Assembly: GCA_016180925.1 (NCBI GenBank)
Contig: JACPAH010000020.1
Span: 4,620-28,619, forward strand
DNA from: Candidatus Aenigmatarchaeota archaeon
GTDB lineage: Archaea > Aenigmatarchaeota > Aenigmatarchaeia > GW2011-AR5
Direction of reading: 5' to 3'
Length of the DNA: 24,000 bases
In this document: positions 10,541-21,036 of the stretch, piece by piece
Numbering within the stretch: position 1 is the first letter of the stretch
How the letters are laid out: every line of letters starts with the position of its first letter
Notes under the pieces: generated by a model
Told to the model about the DNA's origin: nothing
Database searches by the model: none
What the model saw: the letters and a program-made list of their open reading frames with translations, nothing else
Made by a program: the position numbers and the translations under genes

Positions 10541-10846
10541 ATGGTAAATCTGAATATGGCCAAGCGCGCTGAGATAGAAAAGACCCTGAAAATATTGAAA
10601 AGGGAGTCGCATAAATTCAATAATGCCGCCCTGACGGAGATAGGCCGCGAGACTCATGACGCTTTTCAGGTCCTCGTGTCGTGCATCATGAGCCTGCGCA
10701 CGCGCGATACCGTGACATACCCGACCGCGAAAAAGCTTTTTTCCACCGCCAAGACGCCGAAGCAGATAGCAAATATGCCCCTCCGCCGGCTTGAGGGCAT
10801 AATAAGGCCAGTGAACTTCTACAGAACTAAAATTTGTACCCATTAA
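10541..10846 (+). pseudogene. nth: 5' fragment of the host endonuclease III (nth); homology ends at FYRTK (10831), followed by 5 junk codons and TAA
   Basis: VLVSCIMSLRTRD...AKTPKQI...PVNFYRTK aligns with the N-terminal third of endonuclease III and with the island-encoded copy. Base composition switches to AT-rich at about 10830. Confidence 0.85.
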
Positions 10847-10954
10847 CTTTAACAAAAAGTTGTTTTTCTATATATAAAGCCATTATTATGGTACTAAATA
10901 TATTTTGTTTCAACTTCTTTTTGATTTTAAGAAATCTAAGAGCTAATTAACTAT

Positions 10955-11107
10955 ATGACCATATTTGACGGAAACGAAGAAATACCTGAGATTTGCCATT
11001 TTTGTGGTGAATTTGAGCAAAAGGTAGATTTAGCCACGTTGAACATGAAGATTTGGGGATGTGTTAATTCCAATTGTATATTGAATAAAACACCTGAATC
11101 AATGTGA
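10955..11107 (+). CDS. 50-aa zinc-ribbon protein (island)
   Basis: MTIFDGNEEIPEICHFCGEF...WGCVNSNCILNKTPESM has CxxC ... CxxxxC. It is below the ORF-track size cutoff, so I translated it by hand. Confidence 0.4.
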   Translation: MTIFDGNEEIPEICHFCGEFEQKVDLATLNMKIWGCVNSNCILNKTPESM

Positions 11108-11139
11108 GATAGGTGTTCATAATGCAATGAGGTATCGAA

Positions 11140-11352
11140 ATGAAAGATGAACTATCTAAACTGAATAATAAATTAAAAAAAAGATTCAAAAGAGAGGGCA
11201 TTACAGACCAGCAGGTTTCTGACGTCTATAATAGAAAAAGATGCGAAAAATGTCTAGGTAGAATTGATATTAAGACACAAAGAAAAGGCATGAATATTTG
11301 TAAATGCAAGACAAGAATGGTCGATGTGGAAGAAGAAGTTATAGAAGATTGA
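11140..11352 (+). CDS. 70-aa basic protein with a Cys4 motif (island)
   Basis: CEKC ... CKC in a Lys/Arg-rich context, with an acidic tail VDVEEEVIED. Confidence 0.45.
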   Translation: MKDELSKLNNKLKKRFKREGITDQQVSDVYNRKRCEKCLGRIDIKTQRKGMNICKCKTRMVDVEEEVIED

Positions 11353-11407
11353 TAATCGACTTTTTACAATAAAAAATAATATATTCAGAGTGCAATGAAG
11401 TGAAAAA

Positions 11408-11812
11408 ATGAAGAAAAACTCGACAGAAAGAAAGGCTATTGAAATTGTTAAAAAATTTGAACAGGAAAGAACGAATGAGATACCAGAAGAAATGCCAAAT
11501 GGACACGGCTATGACATAAAATCTGGAAATAGATTTATTGAAGTAAAAGGTACATATGGAGGTTTAGATAAGGTATGGGTTGTTTTACATCATACGTTTT
11601 TCAAGAAAATGTGGAATAGTGGAAGAAATTATTATATTTATTTCGTCTATAATTTAAATGACAAACCAAAAATGAAAATAATTAATCCAGAGAAAATATT
11701 TCCTAACTTGGAAATAGAACCTAAATACATTCTTCGTGGAAAAATCATAAGGGATAAAGAAATAGACGAAATCGATGTTTCTAAATTTTACACAGATTCT
11801 TCAGAAATATAA
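11408..11812 (+). CDS. PD-(D/E)xK nuclease-fold protein, DUF3883-like (island)
   Basis: GYDIKSGNRFIEVKGT matches the D...(E/Q)xK core as arranged in DUF3883/restriction-endonuclease-like domains, and an upstream acidic residue lies in the KKFEQER helix. Confidence 0.55.
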   Translation: MKKNSTERKAIEIVKKFEQERTNEIPEEMPNGHGYDIKSGNRFIEVKGTYGGLDKVWVVLHHTFFKKMWNSGRNYYIYFVYNLNDKPKMKIINPEKIFPNLEIEPKYILRGKIIRDKEIDEIDVSKFYTDSSEI

Positions 11813-11853
11813 ATTTTTGCCTGCATTGATGATATCATTATCAAGTACGGTGT

Positions 11854-12546
11854 TTATTTCTTCTTTATAGTAGGAATTTGATTGGTAAACTGCGAAGTAA
11901 CAACCTCATCATAATACTTACAATACTTTGTCACAGGACACTCCCAACAATGAGGTTTTACAGGCTTGCATATATTCTGTCCAAAGGTCACGAAAGTATC
12001 GTTAAAATCAGCCCAAAACCGTTTAGGTATAAGCTTTCTAAGTTCTTGTTCAGTTTGTTCTGGAGTCTTTGTTTCTATCCATCCTAATCTATTGGGTATC
12101 CTATGGCAGTGAATATCTATAGGCATACCTTCTTTACGATAGCCATAAACAAGGACGATATTAGCGGTTTTTCTGCCTACACCCTTTAATTTGAGCAATT
12201 CTTCCATAGTGTCCGGTACTTTGCCTTTATACTGCTCTAAAATGACCTTACTAATGTCCTTTATACGTCGTGCCTTAACCCGATAAAATCCGACAGGGAA
12301 TATGGCTTTCTCTATGCTTTTTACATTCAGCTTAACCATTTGTTGAGGTGTTTTGGCTAATTGGAATAGCCTATAGGAGGCTTTCTTAGTCGTTTCATCC
12401 CTTGTGCGTAAACTGAGCAAACAACTGATTAGGACTTCATAAGGGCTCTGGTTTTTATGACTTACTTGGGTAATTAGAGGTTCCTCAAATTTAGATACCA
12501 TTTTCTTGATAAGAGAAATGACAACAGGGATATGTTTTTTTCTCAT
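11854..12546 (-). CDS. nth: endonuclease III (HhH-GPD DNA glycosylase/AP lyase), complete, island-encoded
   Basis: SLRTRD is present. The HhH motif LLKLKGVGRKTANIVL includes the catalytic Lys, and IDIHCHRIPNRLG includes the catalytic Asp. The 4Fe-4S cluster loop CKPVKPHCWECPVTKYC is C-x6-C-x2-C-x5-C. Confidence 0.9.
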   Translation of the reverse strand: MRKKHIPVVISLIKKMVSKFEEPLITQVSHKNQSPYEVLISCLLSLRTRDETTKKASYRLFQLAKTPQQMVKLNVKSIEKAIFPVGFYRVKARRIKDISKVILEQYKGKVPDTMEELLKLKGVGRKTANIVLVYGYRKEGMPIDIHCHRIPNRLGWIETKTPEQTEQELRKLIPKRFWADFNDTFVTFGQNICKPVKPHCWECPVTKYCKYYDEVVTSQFTNQIPTIKKK

Positions 12547-12547
12547 G

Positions 12548-13537
12548 TTAAGACCTAGTTATTAAACTGCTTAATTTTTGCCTCTTTTCGGACGATGTAA
12601 AATTTATATGCTTTTGAAATTTAATGAAGTTTTCATAACCATAAATACCAAAATAAAACCTGTTTTTATTTCTTTTAATATATTTTCTGATGGGTGCAGC
12701 TTTAATGCCAAAATTTGATAATAGTTTTCTAATAGATTCTAAAATATCAGGATTATCTTGATATAATCTTATATGCCGAGATTTTATATCAACAGAAGAT
12801 TCATCATCATAAATTGCTCTAATCAATCCTGATTTAAATTCAAGTGATAAATCAAAAACTATGTCAGGAATATTTTTTCTTTTATTGTTAATGAATTTCC
12901 CGAAAATAAAAAATAATAAAATACCGGTAGATTTTGGATAAAATAATACGATATTTGCTTTACCTTTTATTTCGTCTAGATTTTCAATACGTTTTAACCA
13001 TGAAGATTTTTCTTCAAATTTCTTCTCTTTTTGCACCCATATTCTAGGTTTCACATTAAATAAATAATTCATGCTCTGAGAAAATTCATTTAATAGTTCT
13101 TTATTGCTATTTGAATAGGCGGGTTGTGATAATTTAGAATTTATCCATCCATCTCCTATAATATGACCTAATACTAATCCTAAATTTATGTCATCTTTAA
13201 TTGGAAAATTTGGTTTGATAAATTTTGTGAATCCCAACCCAAAAGATTTAATGGAAATTAAATTGTTTTCAACATCAATCCAACTATAGGATTTACTATT
13301 TTCTATAATAATTTTCAGTTTCGACATAGGCATATTACGACTTGAATAATACCATTGCTTTATCCCTATAGATTGGTTAAATTTTTTACTAAATATCATG
13401 TTAAGTTTTTCGGCTAAAATAGTATCTCTATGAGGATATTTTTCATTTGAAGCCGAATGTAGTAACTTCTTTATAAAATCTTTATTCAGACTCAAGTAAA
13501 AATCATTACTTTGTAAATTCTCCAATTGAATTTTCAT
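12548..13537 (-). CDS. double-motif LAGLIDADG homing endonuclease
   Basis: There are two LAGLIDADG-type motifs, LGLVLGHIIGDGW and GLIRAIYDDESSV, about 100 aa apart. The protein is AT-rich and Lys/Asn/Ile-rich. Its stop abuts the nth' start (TAAcATG at 12550-12544). Confidence 0.8.
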   Translation of the reverse strand: MKIQLENLQSNDFYLSLNKDFIKKLLHSASNEKYPHRDTILAEKLNMIFSKKFNQSIGIKQWYYSSRNMPMSKLKIIIENSKSYSWIDVENNLISIKSFGLGFTKFIKPNFPIKDDINLGLVLGHIIGDGWINSKLSQPAYSNSNKELLNEFSQSMNYLFNVKPRIWVQKEKKFEEKSSWLKRIENLDEIKGKANIVLFYPKSTGILLFFIFGKFINNKRKNIPDIVFDLSLEFKSGLIRAIYDDESSVDIKSRHIRLYQDNPDILESIRKLLSNFGIKAAPIRKYIKRNKNRFYFGIYGYENFIKFQKHINFTSSEKRQKLSSLITRS

Positions 13538-13615
13538 ATTTTTTAATAAATCACAAACTACTTAAATTTAACTCATGTCCAACGAATACTAAATATATTG
13601 TAACCTAAAATATAG

Positions 13616-13783
13616 ATGAAGCGCGTCGTGCCGAAGCGCTACTGGAGGGACATCAACGACATATTTGTGCGATTTGGCCAGAGCATATGCCTGCCGCGAA
13701 ACCCGAAATGCAATGCATGTCCTGTTAATAAATACTGCGTGTATTACAGGAACGAATATAAGCCGCCAGCTCCAAAGAAATAG
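13616..13783 (+). pseudogene. nth: 3' fragment of the host endonuclease III (Fe-S cluster loop)
   Basis: Hand translation gives MKRVVPKRYWRDINDIFVRFGQSICLPRNPKCNACPVNKYCVYYRNEYKPPAPKK. It aligns with KLIPKRFWADFNDTFVTFGQNICKPVKPHCWECPVTKYC of the island copy. It is GC-rich like the 5' fragment. Confidence 0.85.
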
Positions 13784-13784
13784 G

Positions 13785-13973
13785 ATGAAAGACCTCGCGA
13801 AATACTACAGGCTTCTATCTATTCTGATACCGCTGTATATTGCCATAGGATTCGTGGCTGAAAGGAACGCAGTGTTCAATTATTTCAACGCCGGGCTAGC
13901 TGTTTTTTGGGTGATAATGGTTTTTGCGTGGTTCAAGTTTAGGAAATCGGCGCGAACTTTCAGGAAAAAGTAA
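13785..13973 (+). CDS. 62-aa two-helix membrane protein
   Basis: MKDLAKYYRLLSILIPLYIAIGFVAERNAVFNYFNAGLAVFWVIMVFAWFKFRK. The longer 13665 start in the ORF track would overlap the nth 3' fragment in another frame. Confidence 0.5.
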   Translation: MKDLAKYYRLLSILIPLYIAIGFVAERNAVFNYFNAGLAVFWVIMVFAWFKFRKSARTFRKK

Positions 13974-14029
13974 AAGATTTCTTTAAATATAGGCTACGAT
14001 ATATATATCTCTACGCTATTTTAAGGAAA

Positions 14030-14188
14030 TTGGCGGATTGGTGTATTCTCTTGGCAAGAAAGAAAAAAAGCAAGTATAAGAAGCAGTTCATCGAGGTCTG
14101 GAAATGCAAGGGCTGCAGCTTCGAATGGTCATACAAGACCTTCAGATGCCCCCTGTGCTCAACGGCTGAGATGTTGAAAATTGTCTGA
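14030..14188 (+). CDS. 52-aa basic zinc-ribbon protein (TTG start tentative)
   Basis: Hand translation gives ...LARKKKSKYKKQFIEVWKCKGCSFEWSYKTFRCPLCSTAEMLKIV with CxxC...CxxC. A TATA-like ATATATATAT lies about 25 nt upstream. Confidence 0.4.
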   Translation: MADWCILLARKKKSKYKKQFIEVWKCKGCSFEWSYKTFRCPLCSTAEMLKIV

Positions 14189-14208
14189 GATTTTTTATTT
14201 TTTGTTTC

Positions 14209-14220
14209 TATTTATATTTT
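14209..14220 (+). promoter_or_regulatory. TATA-box-like element for pyrG (near-leaderless)
   Basis: TATTTATATTTT is centred about 25 nt upstream of the GTG at 14239. Confidence 0.4.
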
Positions 14221-14238
14221 CCTTCCATATTGTAAATC

Positions 14239-15951
14239 GTGAAGCTCATAGTTGTTTCAGGCGGCGTGATATCCGGCGTGGGCAAAGGCATCGCCACCGC
14301 TTCCATCGGCAAGATTCTCCAGGAATACGGTTTCTCCGTTACCGCCGTGAAAATAGACCCGTATCTCAATTATGACGCCGGCACCCTGAGGCCAACGGAG
14401 CACGGCGAGGTATGGGTGACCGACGACGGCGGAGAGATAGACCAGGACCTCGGGAACTATGAGCGCTTCCTAGGCTTCCAGATTTCGCGGCGCAACAACA
14501 TCACGACCGGCCAGGTATACAAGGAGATAATAGACAAGGAGAGGCGCGGCGAATTCCTCGGGCAGACGATATCGCCGTTTCCTTTCATACCCAACGAGAT
14601 AAAATCGCGCGTGAAGGAATGCGCCAGGCGCCCGGACGGCGGCGAATACGACTTTGTGATAGTCGAGATAGGGGGCACCATAGGCGATTACGAAAACGCG
14701 CCTTTCCTGTTCGCAATGAAGAGCTTCGAGATAGAGCTCGGGAAGGACAGCGTGACGAACATGCTCGTCTCCTATTTGCCGGTGCCGCCCAACGTCGGCG
14801 AAATGAAGACGAAGCCGACCCAGCAGGCCATACGCATGCTGAACGAGCACGGCATATTTCCGGATTTCGTGCTTTGCAGGAGCACGGAGCCCCTTGACGA
14901 CGTGCGCAAGAAGAAGATAGAGACTTATGCCAACATACCCAGCGACCACATAATATCGGCGCCGGACATAAAGAGCGTCTACCGCGTGCCGCTGAACTTC
15001 GAGTCCCAGAACCTGGGCTACAAGCTGATGAAGCTCATGAACGTGATGCCCAGGGCCACGCCTGACTGGTCAAAATGGAAGGAGCTTGTCGAGAACATCG
15101 AGAATCCCTCGAGGAGTGTGAAGGTGGCAATGGTCGGCAAGTACGTGTCGACCGGGAACTTCAATCTTTCGGATTCGTACATATCCATAAACAGCGCCCT
15201 CTCGCATGCCGGCGCGAACCTCGGCGTCGGCATCGACATAGACTGGATAGACTCGGGAAAATTCGATAATGGCGGTTCTGACGTGCTTGATGGATATGAC
15301 GGGGTGATAATACCGGGAGGCTTCGGCGGCAGCGGCGTTGAAGGGAAGATAAATTCCATAAGGCATGCACGGGAGAACGGCACGCCTTTCCTCGGCCTCT
15401 GCTACGGGATGCAGCTTGCCATAATAGAATTTGCGAGAAACGTCTGCGGCATGGAAGGCGCCCACACGACCGAAGTCGACCCGCAGGCCAGGTATCCTGT
15501 TATAGACGTCCTGCCCTCCCAGAAGGCGATACTGAAAAACAAGGAATACGGCGGCACGATGAGGCTGGGGGCATACGCGGCCGTCCTGGAAAAATCGAAA
15601 GTCCTTGACGCTTATTCCTCCGGGAGGATGAAAACCGACATGAAAATAGCTGGACTCATAAGGAAGAGTTCACCATTCAGGCTTGGTATCCTGAATGAAG
15701 GCGAGCCTTTCGTTTTAGAGCGTCACCGCCACAGATATGAGGTCGCTCCGAAGTTCATAGATGCCCTGAAGAAGGGCGGCCTTGTCTTCCCTGGATTCCA
15801 CAGGCGCGACGACGGCGCGAACCTTATGGAGTTCATCGAGCTTCCTGAGCACCCTTTCTTCGTTGCAACGCAGGCGCATCCGGAATTCAAGTCGCGCCTC
15901 GACGACACTGCCCCGCTTTTCCTTGAATTTGTCAGGGCGTGCGTTGATTAA
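14239..15951 (+). CDS. pyrG: CTP synthase
   Basis: The N-terminus VVSGGVISGVGKGI is present. The glutaminase domain has GIIIPGGFGGSG-like VIIPGGFGGSGVEGK, the nucleophile motif GLCYGMQ, and HRHRYEV. Confidence 0.95.
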   Translation: MKLIVVSGGVISGVGKGIATASIGKILQEYGFSVTAVKIDPYLNYDAGTLRPTEHGEVWVTDDGGEIDQDLGNYERFLGFQISRRNNITTGQVYKEIIDKERRGEFLGQTISPFPFIPNEIKSRVKECARRPDGGEYDFVIVEIGGTIGDYENAPFLFAMKSFEIELGKDSVTNMLVSYLPVPPNVGEMKTKPTQQAIRMLNEHGIFPDFVLCRSTEPLDDVRKKKIETYANIPSDHIISAPDIKSVYRVPLNFESQNLGYKLMKLMNVMPRATPDWSKWKELVENIENPSRSVKVAMVGKYVSTGNFNLSDSYISINSALSHAGANLGVGIDIDWIDSGKFDNGGSDVLDGYDGVIIPGGFGGSGVEGKINSIRHARENGTPFLGLCYGMQLAIIEFARNVCGMEGAHTTEVDPQARYPVIDVLPSQKAILKNKEYGGTMRLGAYAAVLEKSKVLDAYSSGRMKTDMKIAGLIRKSSPFRLGILNEGEPFVLERHRHRYEVAPKFIDALKKGGLVFPGFHRRDDGANLMEFIELPEHPFFVATQAHPEFKSRLDDTAPLFLEFVRACVD

Positions 15952-16354
15952 TAATTCCTGTATTTCTTCTGGAGAATCTTTCGTGGACAGGCCCTGCAAC
16001 GTATTCCAGGAAAGCGCCTAGCGTTATGCCGAGCGCTGCAGGGCCGAATGTATGGAATATGTTGTCGGCTTCGCCTGCCTGAAGCCTGTATTCTGTCATT
16101 GCCGGCCCGGCGACTTCCATCCCCCTTCCGACATGGACAAGAGGTGACCTTCTGCCTTCTCCTGCGTACTTGGCGGCATTCCATGCAGCAAGACCAGCTG
16201 ACATGACGCCCATCCCTTCGTCAACCTGTTCCGGTCCTGTAAAATTGCCGTCATACATGAGTCTTGCAGCAGTTTCAGCCGGTCCAAGAAGTATTCCTGA
16301 TGCCCCCAGTTTGTCAAGCCAATATTGGGCATTTGACATAGTTATCACTGCCAT
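15932..16354 (-). CDS. hypothetical 140-aa protein
   Basis: Non-repetitive ORF. Its start overlaps the stop of the upstream Zn-ribbon ORF (ATGGCAGTGA). Its 3' end overlaps convergent pyrG by 20 nt. No family recognised. Confidence 0.45.
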   Translation of the reverse strand: MAVITMSNAQYWLDKLGASGILLGPAETAARLMYDGNFTGPEQVDEGMGVMSAGLAAWNAAKYAGEGRRSPLVHVGRGMEVAGPAMTEYRLQAGEADNIFHTFGPAALGITLGAFLEYVAGPVHERFSRRNTGIINQRTP

Positions 16355-16461
16355 TTAGTCTTTTTCGCGTTGTATTCCTTGCCGCAGAAGCCGCAGAATA
16401 TCATGTGGCGAGTCTTAATCAGACGGCCGTCCTTGCAGCTGTTGCACCTTTTTATTACCAT
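16345..16461 (-). CDS. 38-aa zinc-ribbon protein
   Basis: Hand translation gives MVIKRCNSCKDGRLIKTRHMIFCGFCGKEYNAKKTKWQ with CxxC...CxxC. It is coupled to the downstream ORF. Confidence 0.45.
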   Translation of the reverse strand: MVIKRCNSCKDGRLIKTRHMIFCGFCGKEYNAKKTKWQ

Positions 16462-16474
16462 TTGACACACACCC

Positions 16475-16642
16475 TTACTCGTTCTTTCTGCCGTCCAGCC
16501 CGGACATGAGCATCTCCTTGCTTATCTCTCCAGAGAGCAAAGCTTTCTGAGATCTTGAAGGAATTTCATTCCTTCCAAGACTGCCTTCGGCATACTCATG
16601 CCCGTGTTTGGCCCTCTCATCCCTGTTCTGGCGGCTTTTCAT
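16475..16642 (-). CDS. 55-aa hypothetical ORF containing repeat copy C1
   Basis: MKSRQNRDERAKHGHEYAEGSLGRNEIPSRSQKALLSGEISKEMLMSGLDGRKNE. The IPSRSQKALLS part is encoded by the two-hairpin repeat, so coding status is doubtful. Confidence 0.3.
   Translation of the reverse strand: MKSRQNRDERAKHGHEYAEGSLGRNEIPSRSQKALLSGEISKEMLMSGLDGRKNE
16531..16575 (-). repeat. two-hairpin repeat, copy C1
   Basis: On the plus strand: CAGAGAGC-AAA-GCTTTCTG (16531-16549), linker AGATCTT, GAAGGAAT-TTC-ATTCCTTC (16557-16575). Confidence 0.8.
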
Positions 16643-17058
16643 CTGTATTATATGCCCGGAGTGCCTTAAATAGTTTACTACTTATTAGTAGTTATTTTAT
16701 GATATATATTTCAGCGTGATAATAATCATATACAAATGGCATGGGAAGAAGGTGGGAACACGTTAATTGAAGCCTTTAAATAATTTATCTTGGACTTAGT
16801 TAACAAAATATAAAGGCAGCAAGAGGGGTGAAAAGCGTGAAAATAAGATTCTATGAAGAAGAAGATGACGACAGCGGCTGGGACGATGACGACGACGCCG
16901 GTGACGAAGATGAAGGTGGCGGCGGAGAAGAGGAATAACCCTTTGTTTCGGTATTTTTTGTTTTAATTACCAAATTCCTTCAAAAACCTCACTTTTGAGG
17001 ATTTCAAAGAAATGTAATTTCTTTGAAGATTTCTGTGATTTTATGCATCTGAATATGT

Positions 17059-17150
17059 TATAGTGCTCCAAGAAAACATTCAGGATATTAGTTTTCTTGG
17101 GCACTATATGTGAAGCAAATAAACATGTCGGGATTCTTTATTTGCTTCAC
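17059..17150 (-). other. two adjacent long hairpins immediately 3' of aIF2-gamma (terminator or small structured RNA candidate)
   Basis: 17059-17077 pairs with 17091-17108 (18 bp, one bulged T, 13-nt loop). 17110-17123 pairs with 17137-17150 (14 bp, 13-nt loop). Confidence 0.5.
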
Positions 17151-17171
17151 TATAAGAATATTTATGCTCAT

Positions 17172-18407
17172 CTAGAGGATTTCGCCCCATCCTATGAGAT
17201 GCCACCTGCCGCCGACCTGCTTTGATAATGCAACCTTGCTTCCGGCCCGAGCGCAGACAGGTATCTTCAGGCTTACATTTACGCTCTTTCCGGAGGAAGT
17301 CACCAGGCCGACAGTTTTTGATATGGCTACCGTCATCATGAGAACGTCTCCCGTCCTTATCGGCTCCACTTTCTTTACGCCTTCCACTCCTATTATATGG
17401 TCGAACGGATGGACCTTGAGGTTCAGCTGATCCATGTTGGACGGCAGGTTCTTTCCTGCGATGCTTCCGGTCATCGAGTCTCCTCTGGTGAGCGACGGGT
17501 CGAGCTCCGTCTGCATCGCGACAAGACCACCGGGCGACGCCTCGTCTACCCTGCCTGTCTGGAACATCTCTGTTATCTTTGTCGTTATGGGGCTCCATTT
17601 GTCGTTTATCTTGACCCCGGGCTTTATCTCTATCTCGTCGCCCGTCTTTATTGTGCCTTCTATCAGCGAACCGCCTATGACGCCGCCTTTGAGCTCGCCG
17701 GGCGGCGTGCCGGGCTTGTTGATGTCGAACGACCTTGCCACATAGAAAATAGGGCTTTTTGTCGCATCCCTCTTCGGGCTCGGCATGAGCCTTTCTATCT
17801 CCTCTATGAGCATGTCGATGTTGATGTTGTTTATGGCGCTGATTGGTATTATCGGGGCGTTCTCCGCGACCGTCCCTTTCACGAATTTCTTTATTTCGTC
17901 ATGGCTCTCGATCGCCCTCTTTTCCGGGACCAGGTCTATCTTGTTCTGGACTATTATTATGTTCTTTATTCCCGCTATATCCAGCGCCTTGAGATGCTCG
18001 GCTGTCTGGGGCTGGGGGCATTTCTCGTCCGCGGATATCAGGAGAAGCGCTCCGTCCATCAGCGCCGCGCCCGACAGGACGGTCGCCATCAGCGTCTCGT
18101 GGCCGGGGGCGTCCACGAAGCTTACCGCCCTCTTCGGCCTGCAGTCGCCGAAGCATGACATGCATTTCCTGGCGTTGCCGTATTTCCTGCATTTGTCGCA
18201 GTAGTAGAACGTGACGTCGGCGTAGCCCAGCCTTATCGTGATGCCCCTTTTCATTTCCTCGCTGTGGGTGTCCGTCCACTTGCCCGTCAGGGTCTGTGCC
18301 AGGCTGGTCTTCCCGTGGTCCACGTGCCCGACCATTCCTATGTTTATCTCTGGCTTCATTTCATCTTCGTTCTGTTTCATCTCTGTTTTCTTCGGGAAAG
18401 AAACCAC
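17172..18407 (-). CDS. eif2g: translation initiation factor aIF2 gamma subunit
   Basis: G1 motif GHVDHGKTSL, DAPGHE and NKID are present. The zinc knuckle is CDKCRKYGNARKCMSCFGDC. An alternative start is the ATG at 18380 (MKQNEDE...). Confidence 0.95.
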   Translation of the reverse strand: MVSFPKKTEMKQNEDEMKPEINIGMVGHVDHGKTSLAQTLTGKWTDTHSEEMKRGITIRLGYADVTFYYCDKCRKYGNARKCMSCFGDCRPKRAVSFVDAPGHETLMATVLSGAALMDGALLLISADEKCPQPQTAEHLKALDIAGIKNIIIVQNKIDLVPEKRAIESHDEIKKFVKGTVAENAPIIPISAINNINIDMLIEEIERLMPSPKRDATKSPIFYVARSFDINKPGTPPGELKGGVIGGSLIEGTIKTGDEIEIKPGVKINDKWSPITTKITEMFQTGRVDEASPGGLVAMQTELDPSLTRGDSMTGSIAGKNLPSNMDQLNLKVHPFDHIIGVEGVKKVEPIRTGDVLMMTVAISKTVGLVTSSGKSVNVSLKIPVCARAGSKVALSKQVGGRWHLIGWGEIL

Positions 18408-18419
18408 CCCTGCAAGTCT

Positions 18420-18464
18420 GGAGAGAACAAAGCTCTCTCAGGCCATGAAGGAATCCCATTCCTT
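18420..18464 (-). repeat. two-hairpin repeat, copy C3 (diverged), in the aIF2-gamma 5' leader/promoter region
   Basis: On the plus strand: GAGAGAAC-AAA-GCTCTCTC (18420-18438), linker AGGCCAT, GAAGGAAT-CCC-ATTCCTTC (18446-18464). Confidence 0.7.
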
Positions 18465-18542
18465 CAATGCAAGAATTATGAAATCAAATATAAAAAAGCG
18501 TTCATGGCCTTTTTATTGCGGTTCTGCATTAATTGTTATTAT

Positions 18543-18764
18543 ATGGGCGACGAAAGGAAGCGGGAGATAGACAGGCTGCTTGACGAGGAGTTCGGGAAAA
18601 ATCTTGCGAAGGAATCATCAATTCCTTCAAGATCTCAGAAAGCTTTGCTTTCTGCAGAGAAGGGAAAAGGGTTCTTTCGCAGGCATCTCCTGCTGATACT
18701 GGCATTGATCCCGATAGTCTTCTTCAATACGCTCACACTGCTTGCGATTTTGGGAGTGATTTAG
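18543..18764 (+). CDS. 73-aa tail-anchored membrane protein, hypothetical; contains repeat copy C2
   Basis: MGDERKREIDRLLDEEFGKNLAKESSIPSRSQKALLSAEKGKGFFRRHLLLILALIPIVFFNTLTLLAILGVI. A TATA-like AAATATAAAAAA lies about 45 nt upstream of the ATG. Confidence 0.45.
   Translation: MGDERKREIDRLLDEEFGKNLAKESSIPSRSQKALLSAEKGKGFFRRHLLLILALIPIVFFNTLTLLAILGVI
18608..18654 (+). repeat. two-hairpin repeat, copy C2
   Basis: GAAGGAAT-CATCA-ATTCCTTC (18608-18628), linker AAGATCT, CAGAAAGC-TTT-GCTTTCTG (18636-18654). 18621-18654 equals the reverse complement of 16531-16564 with 1 mismatch. Confidence 0.8.
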
Positions 18765-18925
18765 CTTATATATATATTTTGGACAAGAAAAAGAAATGGC
18801 ACATGCTGAAATAATTACGCCGCATGGAGATATGAAATAGTCATGCAAATTACAGCTCTTCTCAAGTGAGGCAGAAATTAATCTTATTCCTTCTTTTCTC
18901 ATGAGAGCATGTCTGCAGGTAGAAT

Positions 18926-19330
18926 TTACTCTTTTTTATCCTCTTTCTGCTCTTTGGCCTTCCTCGGGAGCAGCTCTTCCAGCGCCTTCGCGCCCAGCTT
19001 CGAGACCTTGCAGTTTATCTGCGTGACTTCCTGCGACACAGTGTTGCCGCGGAACATGCGCCTCTTTCTCATGCCTTCCTTCCCTTTCCTGAAGCCTATT
19101 CCAATGGTCGCGACTATGTTCTTCCTTCCTATTCCCTCTATGTCCCTGCGCATCGGGAATCCGTCCTTGTCGGAGCCACCCGTTATCTGGAGCTCGTAGC
19201 CTTCAAGTCCCAAGAAATCGCCCGGAAAAGTGTCGCCTATGCGCTTTCCCATGACAGGGCAGTCCTTCTGCTCCTTCTCAACCTGTCCTGAATGCTTCTT
19301 GCCGCTTACGACGAATTTGAATACTGCCAT
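18926..19330 (-). CDS. rps6e: 30S ribosomal protein S6e
   Basis: MAVFKFVVSGKK...GYELQITGGSDKDGFPMRRDI...RKRRMFRGNTV is characteristic of S6e. I chose the ATG at 19330 rather than the longer ORF-track start at 19375. Confidence 0.9.
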   Translation of the reverse strand: MAVFKFVVSGKKHSGQVEKEQKDCPVMGKRIGDTFPGDFLGLEGYELQITGGSDKDGFPMRRDIEGIGRKNIVATIGIGFRKGKEGMRKRRMFRGNTVSQEVTQINCKVSKLGAKALEELLPRKAKEQKEDKKE

Positions 19331-19599
19331 TATACATCCCTTTCTTTCCGAAAGAAAGGTCTGTATCAACCCCAAAGAAAGGGCCTACAGACCTTCTTGA
19401 AAAAACCTTATAAGGAAGCAGCGAATCTCTTCATTGCTTCCCAGTTTTTTCAGCCGGGCTAATGCATTTGTTGGAGATAAAGCTTATAAATCCGCTGCAC
19501 TAGCGCAGCGGATTTGTGTGCAGAAAGCATAGATTTCTGACATCTCAAAAGAGCAAAGCTCTTTTGCAGACATATAAAATTTCCATACATCTTAACACC

Positions 19600-21036
19600 A
19601 TGAAAGCCCGCGTAGACGAAAAGTGGCCGTTCCACTTCTCCGAAATCCTGCTGAAGGGCAACCCTGAAAGCAGCGTCGCCGTGTGCACCCTGTGGACGCT
19701 GAAGGAGAAGTTCCTGCCGCTTGAAAACTTCGCCCTGATAGGCAACATGTATTACGGCGAGGGCGTGAGTTATCTTCTCCGCGGCATCCTCTCCAACCCC
19801 AACATACGCTATCTGGTGCTGTGCGGCGTTGACATATCGAATAGTGGCGAAGCCCTTGTTTCCATGTTCAAAAATGGCATCGACGACAACCACATGATAA
19901 TCGGGACCGGCGTTGAAGTGCACAAGGAAATTCCCAGAGATGCGATAGAGGACGTCAGGAAGCACGTTTTTCTCGTGGATATGCGCGGCGCAATAGACGG
20001 CGATAAAGTTGCGTCAAAAATAAGGGAGCTTGAGCCGCTGGACGCCTTTGGCGAGCCCAGGACGTTTCCCATGCCCGAGATTAAAAAAGTCGGCACGTTC
20101 CCGTCCGAGAAGACGGGATTCATAGTGCGCGAGGGGAAGATAGCCGACGCCTGGCTGCGCATCGTCAGGCACGTGATGAAATTTGGCAAGATAAAGAAGA
20201 GCCAGCAGGCGTCGGACATGCGAGAAGTCGTTAACCTGGTCTCGGTGATAGAAGACGAGAACCCGTCGGACCCGTATCTGCCTGAATTCATGCCGTTCGG
20301 CATCCGGGAGATAGAGAATTATTATCCGCAAATCATGACTCCCAAGGGCATCCCGGGCACAAAGTATACATACGGCCAGAAACTGCGGGACTTTCATGGC
20401 GTTAACCAGGTCGAATACATCATAGAGGACCTTAAGCGCACGCCATATTCCCGGCGCGCCGTGGCTGTGACATGGAACCCCGAAACGGACACGCGGAATG
20501 ACAATCCCCCCTGCTGGATAGTTGTGCAGTGCATCATTCAGGACCCGTATCTTTACCTGACATGCTATATCAGGACCAATGACATGTTCGCGGCGTGGCC
20601 CCTGAATGCGTTCGGCCTGCGCAAATTGCAGCAGGAAATAGCGGCCTCTCTTGGCGTCAAACTAGGGCCTTTGATAGTAGTTTCATGCAGCGCCCATATA
20701 TACAGCCACGACTGGAACAAGGCAAAAGAGCTGATAGATAAATACGGGCCGTCCCGGAAGTTCGTTGCGGACCCGCGGGGAAACTTCGTCATAAGGCTGG
20801 ACAGGGAGAAACAGGAACTCATTGTTACGCATTATTCGCCTGAGCAGAAGCAGCTGCAGGAATTCGCGGGGAAGACGGCCGTGGAGCTTTACAGGAAGAT
20901 ACTGGATGCGGACGCAATCTCCATGCCGGGGCACATGATGGACTTGGGCTGCGAACTCCAGAAAGCCGATACCGCCCTCAGGCAGGGTATAGTCTACGAG
21001 CAGGACAAGCCACTGGACTTCGGGAAGAAAGTTTGA
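19600..21036 (+). CDS. thyA: thymidylate synthase (ThyA-type core) with an N-terminal MtrA-like/pterin-associated domain and a C-terminal DUF4346-like domain
   Basis: ThyA core: RRAVAVTWNPETD, PPCW (catalytic Cys context), YIRTNDMFAAWPLNAFGL. C-terminal: RGNFVIRLDREKQELIVTHY...GHMMDLGCELQKADTAL...YEQDKPL, which resembles DUF4346. The ATG at 19600 is preferred over the 19516 extension, which crosses promoter hairpins. Confidence 0.8.
   Translation: MKARVDEKWPFHFSEILLKGNPESSVAVCTLWTLKEKFLPLENFALIGNMYYGEGVSYLLRGILSNPNIRYLVLCGVDISNSGEALVSMFKNGIDDNHMIIGTGVEVHKEIPRDAIEDVRKHVFLVDMRGAIDGDKVASKIRELEPLDAFGEPRTFPMPEIKKVGTFPSEKTGFIVREGKIADAWLRIVRHVMKFGKIKKSQQASDMREVVNLVSVIEDENPSDPYLPEFMPFGIREIENYYPQIMTPKGIPGTKYTYGQKLRDFHGVNQVEYIIEDLKRTPYSRRAVAVTWNPETDTRNDNPPCWIVVQCIIQDPYLYLTCYIRTNDMFAAWPLNAFGLRKLQQEIAASLGVKLGPLIVVSCSAHIYSHDWNKAKELIDKYGPSRKFVADPRGNFVIRLDREKQELIVTHYSPEQKQLQEFAGKTAVELYRKILDADAISMPGHMMDLGCELQKADTALRQGIVYEQDKPLDFGKKV

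Follow-up and report, generated by a model that had tools for sequence, protein, structure and literature searches.

REP doublets, BIMEs and REPINs are short paired palindromes of Proteobacteria that are mobilised by RAYT transposases, which are HUH enzymes of the Y1 type. In Archaea, the small mobile repeats (SMRs) of Haloquadratum walsbyi (SMR-A and SMR-B; HqIRS40–43 and HqIRS55) end in inverted repeats with no relation to any transposon found, leave their target unduplicated, and are mobilised in a manner described as 'enigmatic' (Dyall-Smith et al., 2011; PMC3119063). They are ~80–110 bp long, >95% identical within a type, and often inserted in palindromes of other mobile elements (PMC3119063). 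The Rickettsia palindromic elements (RPEs) lie in frame within protein genes, to which they add a peptide while the host gene is kept (PMC10969869). Here we describe a family of double-hairpin units of 52–57 nt in the Aenigmatarchaeota, a lineage of DPANN archaea. Three copies, C1, C2 and C3, lie around the gene for aIF2-gamma in a stretch of 24,000 nucleotides from a Candidatus Aenigmatarchaeota archaeon (contig JACPAH010000020.1 of assembly GCA_016180925.1, positions 4,620–28,619), the whole of which is called the window below. These three copies and a fourth unit in the window are very probably members of a non-autonomous, transposase-less family of mobile DNA repeats.

The genome that contains the window (G000, in which the window is C13:4620–28619) consists of 843,696 bp in 41 contigs and is 81% complete. 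It was compared with 30 relatives, making 31 genomes of 65–97% completeness, two of which, G001 and G002, belong to the same genus. The DNA of the aIF2-gamma gene is 92% identical to that of G000 in G001 and 76% identical in G002, and the window region is syntenic in both. Positions outside the window are written as contig:position, preceded by the genome where needed. A covariance model, R1, was made from C1, C2 and C3, and matches were accepted at E ≤ 1e-3. C1 is a 54-nt unit on the minus strand (16527–16580, hairpin core 16531–16575; 81.6 bits with R1), C3 a 57-nt unit on the same strand (18417–18473, core 18421–18465; 77.1 bits) and C2 a 57-nt unit on the plus strand (18601–18657, core 18608–18654; 77.6 bits). 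Scores of 77–82 bits, with a rough E of ~1e-16 to 1e-17, are circular for these copies, from which the model was built; that C1–C3 lie beyond chance is supported independently by the 53 further R1 matches in the genome. A first-pass annotation of this DNA had recorded three two-hairpin copies, all of which are present, with the core of C3 at 18421–18465 instead of 18420–18464. It had also pointed to palindromes resembling hairpin I upstream of thyA. These prove to be a full fourth unit (19515–19571, minus strand; 35.7 bits), upstream of, and antisense to, an MtrA-like/ThyA fusion gene (19600–21036, plus strand); the upstream regions of G001 and G002 are not alignable there.

Each unit contains two Watson-Crick hairpins of 8 bp, whose 5′ arms are rich in purines, and a palindromic linker shared between them. 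The layout is TCTG-[CARRRNNN loop NNNYYYTG]-AGATCT-[CARRRNNN loop NNNYYYTG]-CAGA, and the consensus is (A)TCTG-CAAAGNNN-loop-NNNCTTTG-AGATCT-CAAAGNNN-loop-NNNCTTTG-CAGA(T). The trinucleotides TCT and AGA can lengthen each hairpin across a one-base bulge, and the outer ~9 bp of the consensus form inverted termini, TCTGCAAAG/CTTTGCAGA. Hairpins A and B within a unit have different stems, and only these termini are inverted repeats; the bases CAAAG/CTTTG are conserved, and the linker is AGATCT. In C1–C3, hairpin II is GAAGGAAT/ATTCCTTC, with the plus-strand loops TTC, CCC and CATCA that had been reported. The closing pair of hairpin I is likewise as described earlier, C-G in C1 and C2 and G-C in C3. 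Its fifth pair is indeed A-T in C2 and G-C in C3; the G-T claimed for C1 exists on the plus strand only and is an A-C mismatch on the minus strand, which had been taken as the sense. The fold of C1 is weaker on the minus strand (z −1.7) than on the plus strand (z −3.7). Pair 7 of C3, which had gone unmentioned, shows the reverse: the minus strand has G-U there and the plus strand A-C.

That base changes preserve pairing, as had been argued from the three copies, holds throughout the family. Covariation was tested on 43 R1-aligned matches against 500 shuffles, in an alignment that was fitted to the model and holds some loci on both strands. Bases are paired in 98.8% of cells, compared with 75.7% in the shuffles. 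Changes on both sides were seen at 16 of 16 pairs, in 201 cells, and none of the 500 shuffles reached the observed values; sliding the partner lowers pairing to 39–54%. G-U pairs make up 8 of 672 cells in this alignment, about 1%. In a register-based table of 52 units and 832 pairs there are 9 G-U and 6 A-C, and several positions are about half A-T and half G-C with 0–3 mismatches. Among hairpins with a single mismatch, G-T was found 24 times and A-C 20 times on the sense strand. Nearly all variation in the stems is between A-T and G-C, with the 5′ arm staying purine-rich. The compensatory pairing is genuine and, because G-U is about as rare as A-C, its pattern is that of a DNA palindrome bound to keep its Watson-Crick pairs, not that of an RNA helix.

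These results bear on the idea of a palindromic operator for a dimeric transcription factor, with a regulon including aIF2-gamma and ribosomal protein S6e. The window copies are palindromic and lie near promoters, as such an operator would. The wide variation of the stem sequences with pairing kept is the opposite of what a sequence-specific operator would display. Copies also occur within coding sequences and within other repeats, the genomic matches have no functional theme, and copies are missing from orthologous promoters. An operator is therefore very improbable.

A census of the genome for perfect 8-bp hairpins with 3–7-nt loops found 339 distinct ones, compared with ~57 in shuffled sequence, and their stems follow the pattern CARRRRNN...NNYYYYTG. 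The division into coding and non-coding DNA rests on ORF-based (open reading frame) gene calls, outside which 19% of the genome falls; 247 of the 339 hairpins are there. Hairpin density is alike in tandem, divergent and convergent spacers, at 1.3–1.7 per kb, and is 0.13 per kb in genes. The units are enriched at least 10-fold in non-coding DNA. R1 has 56 matches in G000, ~66 per Mb, 29 in G001 and 50 in the other congener, and 20–54 in seven other genera, one of which belongs to another family. Over the 30 relatives the number ranges from 0 to 54, with no match in 10 of the 30, genomes that are 65–94% complete. An Rfam scan gave nothing at gathering score anywhere in the window, and among IMG/VR viral contigs there were 8 pattern matches, none of which fitted the covariance model.

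All copies had been thought to lie in the sense orientation of local transcription. This is literally so for C1–C3, but the fourth copy is antisense, and across the genome the units in spacers between co-directional genes are divided into 15 sense and 17 antisense (binomial p = 0.86); the pattern of C1–C3 is one of chance. The first-pass annotation proposed an element that works as RNA in 5′ leaders, or else a palindrome bound by a regulator; against this speak the lack of orientation bias, the lack of a G-U excess, and the absence of C2 and C3 from both congeners and of C1 from the closer one, G001. What the covariance scan reveals is a generic dispersed repeat without relation to transcription units, an outcome that the annotation had itself named as counting against its proposal. 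A regulatory role bound up with the adjacent genes is not supported.

Comparison of orthologous sites shows gain or loss of whole units, with clean boundaries. C3 in G000 lies between the TATA box (18487–18497, minus strand) and the aIF2-gamma start; the stretch from the conserved TATA box to the aIF2-gamma leader lacks these 57 nt in both G001 and G002. At C2, exactly 57 nt are missing from both genomes, within an otherwise conserved small ORF. The host of C2 is the gene for a conserved small tail-anchored membrane protein (18543–18764, plus strand, 73 codons), and the insert encodes 19 residues, NLAKESSIPSRSQKALLSA, which separate a conserved N-terminal cytosolic helix from the C-terminal membrane anchor. 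In homologues of 53 and 57 amino acids these 19 residues are lacking, and identity elsewhere is ~80%; one database homologue is annotated as an Aenigmarchaeota hypothetical protein, and the protein belongs to no Pfam family. At C1, exactly 54 nt are missing from G001, and the unit is present at the same site in G002. C1 lies in frame within a 55-codon ORF (16475–16642, minus strand) upstream of a Zn-ribbon gene. This ORF is retained in G001; it is not taken as a proven gene because the G002 version lacks an obvious start codon.

Translation of C1 and C2 in the same frame gives the same 11 residues, which might suggest a peptide motif, IPSRSQKALLS, shared by paralogous small proteins and under selection as protein. 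This reading was rejected on the evidence of the C2-host homologues, which lack the segment. C3 and the fourth copy are non-coding, as are most family members, which are intergenic, and the C1 orthologue in G002 encodes QRTPFS, not QKALLS, with the hairpin kept. The likelihood of a peptide motif is close to nil, and the earlier judgement that selection does not act on the encoded peptide stands.

The history of C1 can be followed further in its hairpin I, which is CAGAAAGC/GCTCTCTG, with the A-C mismatch; the G002 form is CAGAGAAC/GTTCTCTG and the C2 form CAGAAAGC/GCTTTCTG. The G002 and G000 forms of C1 differ here by one double compensatory change, one A-C repair and two loop bases. Since hairpin I of C1 is intermediate between the G002 form and the C2 form, and since C2 and C1 are 95% identical over 41 nt, C2 was probably copied locally from an older C1.

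Other units follow the same pattern of presence and absence. A genic unit of 54 nt at C16:10978–11031 is missing from G001, and units at G002:C16:907, G001:C19:10045 and G002:C69:721 correspond to empty sites in G000. Opposite two further units, G000 has decayed or partly deleted remnants, at C33:~680 and C14:~7560. About five units are common to G000 and G001 or G002 at apparently orthologous sites; at five loci (L044, L047, L048, L056 and L073) the orthologue alignments are too complex for filled or empty calls. The inserts in ORFs measure 54, 57 and 54 nt, the C1 host being doubtful, and those in non-coding DNA 57, 55, 56, 54 and 52 nt. All three lengths in ORFs are multiples of three, which in this small sample fits a filter for preservation of the reading frame. 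The unit at G002:C16:907–964 (L045) lies directly upstream of the 3′ half of a tRNA (GGTTCGAATCCCG) and may sit in a tRNA intron or leader; the corresponding site at G000:C16:~6400 is empty.

C1, C2, C16:10978, G002:C16:907 and two nested sites of the form TA/TA, where the slash marks the point of insertion, show no evident target duplication. At the junctions of C3, G001:C19 and G002:C69, repeats of 2–6 nt leave the call ambiguous. The sequence CTTGCA at C3 occurs at the 5′ end of the unit and again in the flank, and could alternatively represent a 51-nt insert with a 6-bp duplication. Because C2 has the same TCTTGC end without such a flank, CTTGCA is most simply read as the unit's own 5′ end beside a similar flank, that is, as microhomology. 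The GGGAAAA around C2 was considered as a target duplication and rejected, being ancestral purine-rich coding sequence already found in the empty alleles.

Several units are nested in other small repeats. The window holds, at 17058–17155, the empty form of a 98-nt repeat with two long hairpins (stems of 17 bp and 14 bp), in which the empty target TA/TA is at 17094–17097. G000 and most of the family's genera contain many copies of this repeat, at 75–95% identity. In six G000 paralogues a 52-nt unit is found at TA/TA between the two hairpins (C3:1490, C7:8116, C12:23175, C14:1259, C32:1985 and C38:12246). A second host is a MITE-like (miniature inverted-repeat transposable element) sequence of ~125 nt, copies of which (G002:C8:10954, C27:2205) carry a unit at GCGTA/TACCG. 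This element is present in the window at ~2724–2856, with two internal hairpins and nested inverted repeats (GATTGTATCC...GGATACAATC; GATGGCGGACGT...ACGTCCGCCATC). One G002 unit is nested within the linker of another unit. At G000:C7:1410–1445, an insert of 36 nt with a single hairpin (AAAATCCCA...TGGGATTTT) lies inside hairpin A of a unit and is missing in L076 (G001:C33:4154–4211). It is flanked by a duplicated TTTAA and looks like a different micro-element, one that makes a target duplication.

A mobile family of this kind would spread by copy and paste through a hairpin-forming, probably single-stranded DNA intermediate, with a mobilising enzyme supplied in trans. Hairpins, the lack of duplication and the seamless absence of C1 from G001 fit the chemistry of HUH/Y1 enzymes (IS200/IS605, RAYT). 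If propagation needs intact hairpins, only well-paired lineages would multiply, which would give rise to the observed covariation. In coding DNA, units of a length divisible by three are tolerated, provided that the frame stays open. The double hairpin that C3 places at the 5′ end of the aIF2-gamma mRNA would be a tolerated by-product, not a designed regulator.

Several observations weigh against this reading. No enzyme that would mobilise the units was found, and PF01797 (Y1_Tnp) was not detected in G000, a genome 81% complete. Among the 31 genomes an intact Y1 gene is present in four, G001, G010, G018 and G028, which have 29, 4, 1 and 7 units, and unit-rich genomes (20–56 units), including G002, G005, G006, G014, G017 and G020, have none or fragments only. 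A RAYT or IS200 TnpA was rejected as the mobiliser, as Y1 presence does not follow copy number. The intact tnpA of G001 is flanked by hairpins that bear no relation to the double-hairpin unit, and searches for Y1_Tnp and TnpB turned up no autonomous parent element that shares the unit's termini. TnpB genes occur in the genus; those of G000, at C21 and C37, have no double-hairpin unit at their borders. In addition, four orthologous shared copies have changes at 3 of 128 stem positions compared with 10 of 52 positions in loops and linkers (p = 3e-4). Finally, hairpin II and the linker of C1 are identical (100%) over 40 nt in G000 and G002, between flanks that are ~75% identical. This could reflect retention under constraint, gene conversion or repeated insertion at the same site.

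The conservation of stems could reflect constraint in place or correction of one arm by the other. It is only a lead, because the pairs were chosen as still matching the model and because decayed orthologues exist. Constraint in place would be expected if the units were RNA or DNA signals serving the host, stabilising or terminating mRNAs or acting in 5′ leaders, that were spread by transposition and kept by selection. Selective retention after transposition has been proposed for some REP and BIME elements. The sparing of stems agrees with this proposal, as do the three stem changes in C1, all of which keep or improve pairing, and the placement of C3 to form the 5′ end of the aIF2-gamma mRNA. 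Against these stand the unbiased orientation, the failure of G-U to be favoured over A-C, and the equal density in divergent, convergent and tandem spacers. Further, both congeners keep aIF2-gamma, S6e and the small ORF but lack C2 and C3; a third of the relatives (10/30) have no match; the units lack a T-run of the archaeal termination type; and the orthologue comparison carries the ascertainment bias just mentioned. We regard host-serving signals as quite unlikely.

Copying templated by the hairpin itself, free of any dedicated transposase and carried out on extruded hairpins by host replication or repair enzymes or by an enzyme class so far unconnected with transposition, has to be considered beside them, together with the co-option of units as DNA or RNA structural signals. 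One arm would be resynthesised from the other at each copying. If true, this would explain the near-perfect pairing across >20 stem variants, the restriction of variation to A-T/G-C transitions, and the relation of C1 (A-C) to C2 (A-T). These possibilities together are rather unlikely, and a mobile repeat family mobilised in trans is the preferred interpretation.

The remaining features of the window are as follows. Coding density by the ORF-based calls is low at 10846–14239, ahead of a CTP synthase gene (14239–15951, plus strand). The conserved Zn-ribbon gene next to the C1 host ORF encodes 37 amino acids (16345–16458, minus strand). A small, highly acidic ORF (VKIRFYEEEDDDSGWDDDDD...; 16837–16938, plus strand) is kept in G001 and G002, with a conserved TATA-like box and an upstream GGGGTGA motif. 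The aIF2-gamma gene whose leader carries C3 (17172–18368, minus strand; Pfam GTP_EFTU and eIF2_C) has as its relatives metagenome-assembled and single-amplified genomes of Candidatus Aenigmatarchaeota, mainly from groundwater. The S6e gene (18926–19330, minus strand; Pfam Ribosomal_S6e) is co-directional with it, and C2 is antisense to both. Overlapping the S6e start codon (19328–19330) is a 54-nt purine/pyrimidine-tract repeat at 19327–19380 (CCCTTTCTTTCC / GAAAGAAAGG / AAAGAAAGGG), with copies at 85–92% identity in at least 8 other genera.

In G001, the block of aIF2-gamma, small ORF and S6e (17172–19330; L013 at G001:C45 and L015 at G001:C33) has the opposite orientation to that in G000 and G002. 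Both G001 breakpoints of this inversion (C45:809–907 and C33:1–56) carry copies of the 98-nt repeat, and S6e and the small ORF are separated in G001 by an additional gene of ~0.8 kb for a membrane protein. The intact IS200-like Y1 gene of G001 is at L016 (G001:C52:1357–1749), with the flanking hairpins CTGCGGTATGC...GCATACCGCAG and CCACCGTAtttaTACGGTGG. Solo hairpins of the form CCACYGYC-N4-GRCRGTGG occur in G000 at C1:25050, C7:23478 and C14:8966, which suggests a second, IS200-related hairpin family.

The literature on Aenigmarchaeota palindromic repeats and DPANN MITEs yielded no description of the double-hairpin units; the family is new, of a kind already known among selfish DNA. What looked like a regulatory, covarying structure beside essential translation genes is explained in this way as selfish DNA. 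It is also a caution for the discovery of RNA motifs in DPANN, for the strong covariation seen here is the product of a mobile DNA palindrome, not of a functional RNA. Three clear natural examples are provided by the window: a small membrane protein with an insertion in frame, a unit inserted in the aIF2-gamma leader, and gain and loss within a genus.

The relation to the described systems can now be considered. Like the classical MITEs (Correia/NEMIS, IS630-derived), the units are non-autonomous elements with terminal inverted repeats, found in many copies and for the most part between genes. Unlike them, they are far shorter and make no visible target-site duplication in the resolved insertions. 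Searches for Y1_Tnp and TnpB found no parent IS with matching termini. The resemblance to RPEs, which is one of analogy only, lies in C2, with its 19 residues, and in C16:10978–11031, both in frame with the host ORF kept. RPEs are bacterial and ~100–150 bp long, whereas the present units are archaeal, ~55 nt and mostly intergenic, with three of six reading frames open. With the REP doublets, BIMEs and REPINs of Proteobacteria they share short paired palindromes, a mainly extragenic location, many copies and no target duplication. As in REPs, there are conserved bases at the foot of the hairpin, here ATCT/AGAT, and compensatory variation in the stem. They differ from the REPIN-RAYT system in that no RAYT/Y1 gene was detected in G000 and Y1 does not track copy number, and from REPINs in that neither hairpin of a unit is an inverted copy of its partner, the 9-bp termini alone being related in this way.

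The SMRs of Haloquadratum appear to be the closest published class, in a comparison made by published description. Both are archaeal, too short to encode a transposase, bounded by inverted termini, without target duplication and present in tens of copies. The habit of inserting in other small repeats is also shared, as the units nest in the 98-nt repeat, the ~125-nt MITE-like element and the linker of another unit. The present units depart from the SMRs in their length of 52–57 nt, their two short hairpins, their stems varied with perfect compensation, and their DPANN hosts. The units would thus be micro-elements that move without a footprint in archaea with genomes of <1 Mb and almost no transposases.

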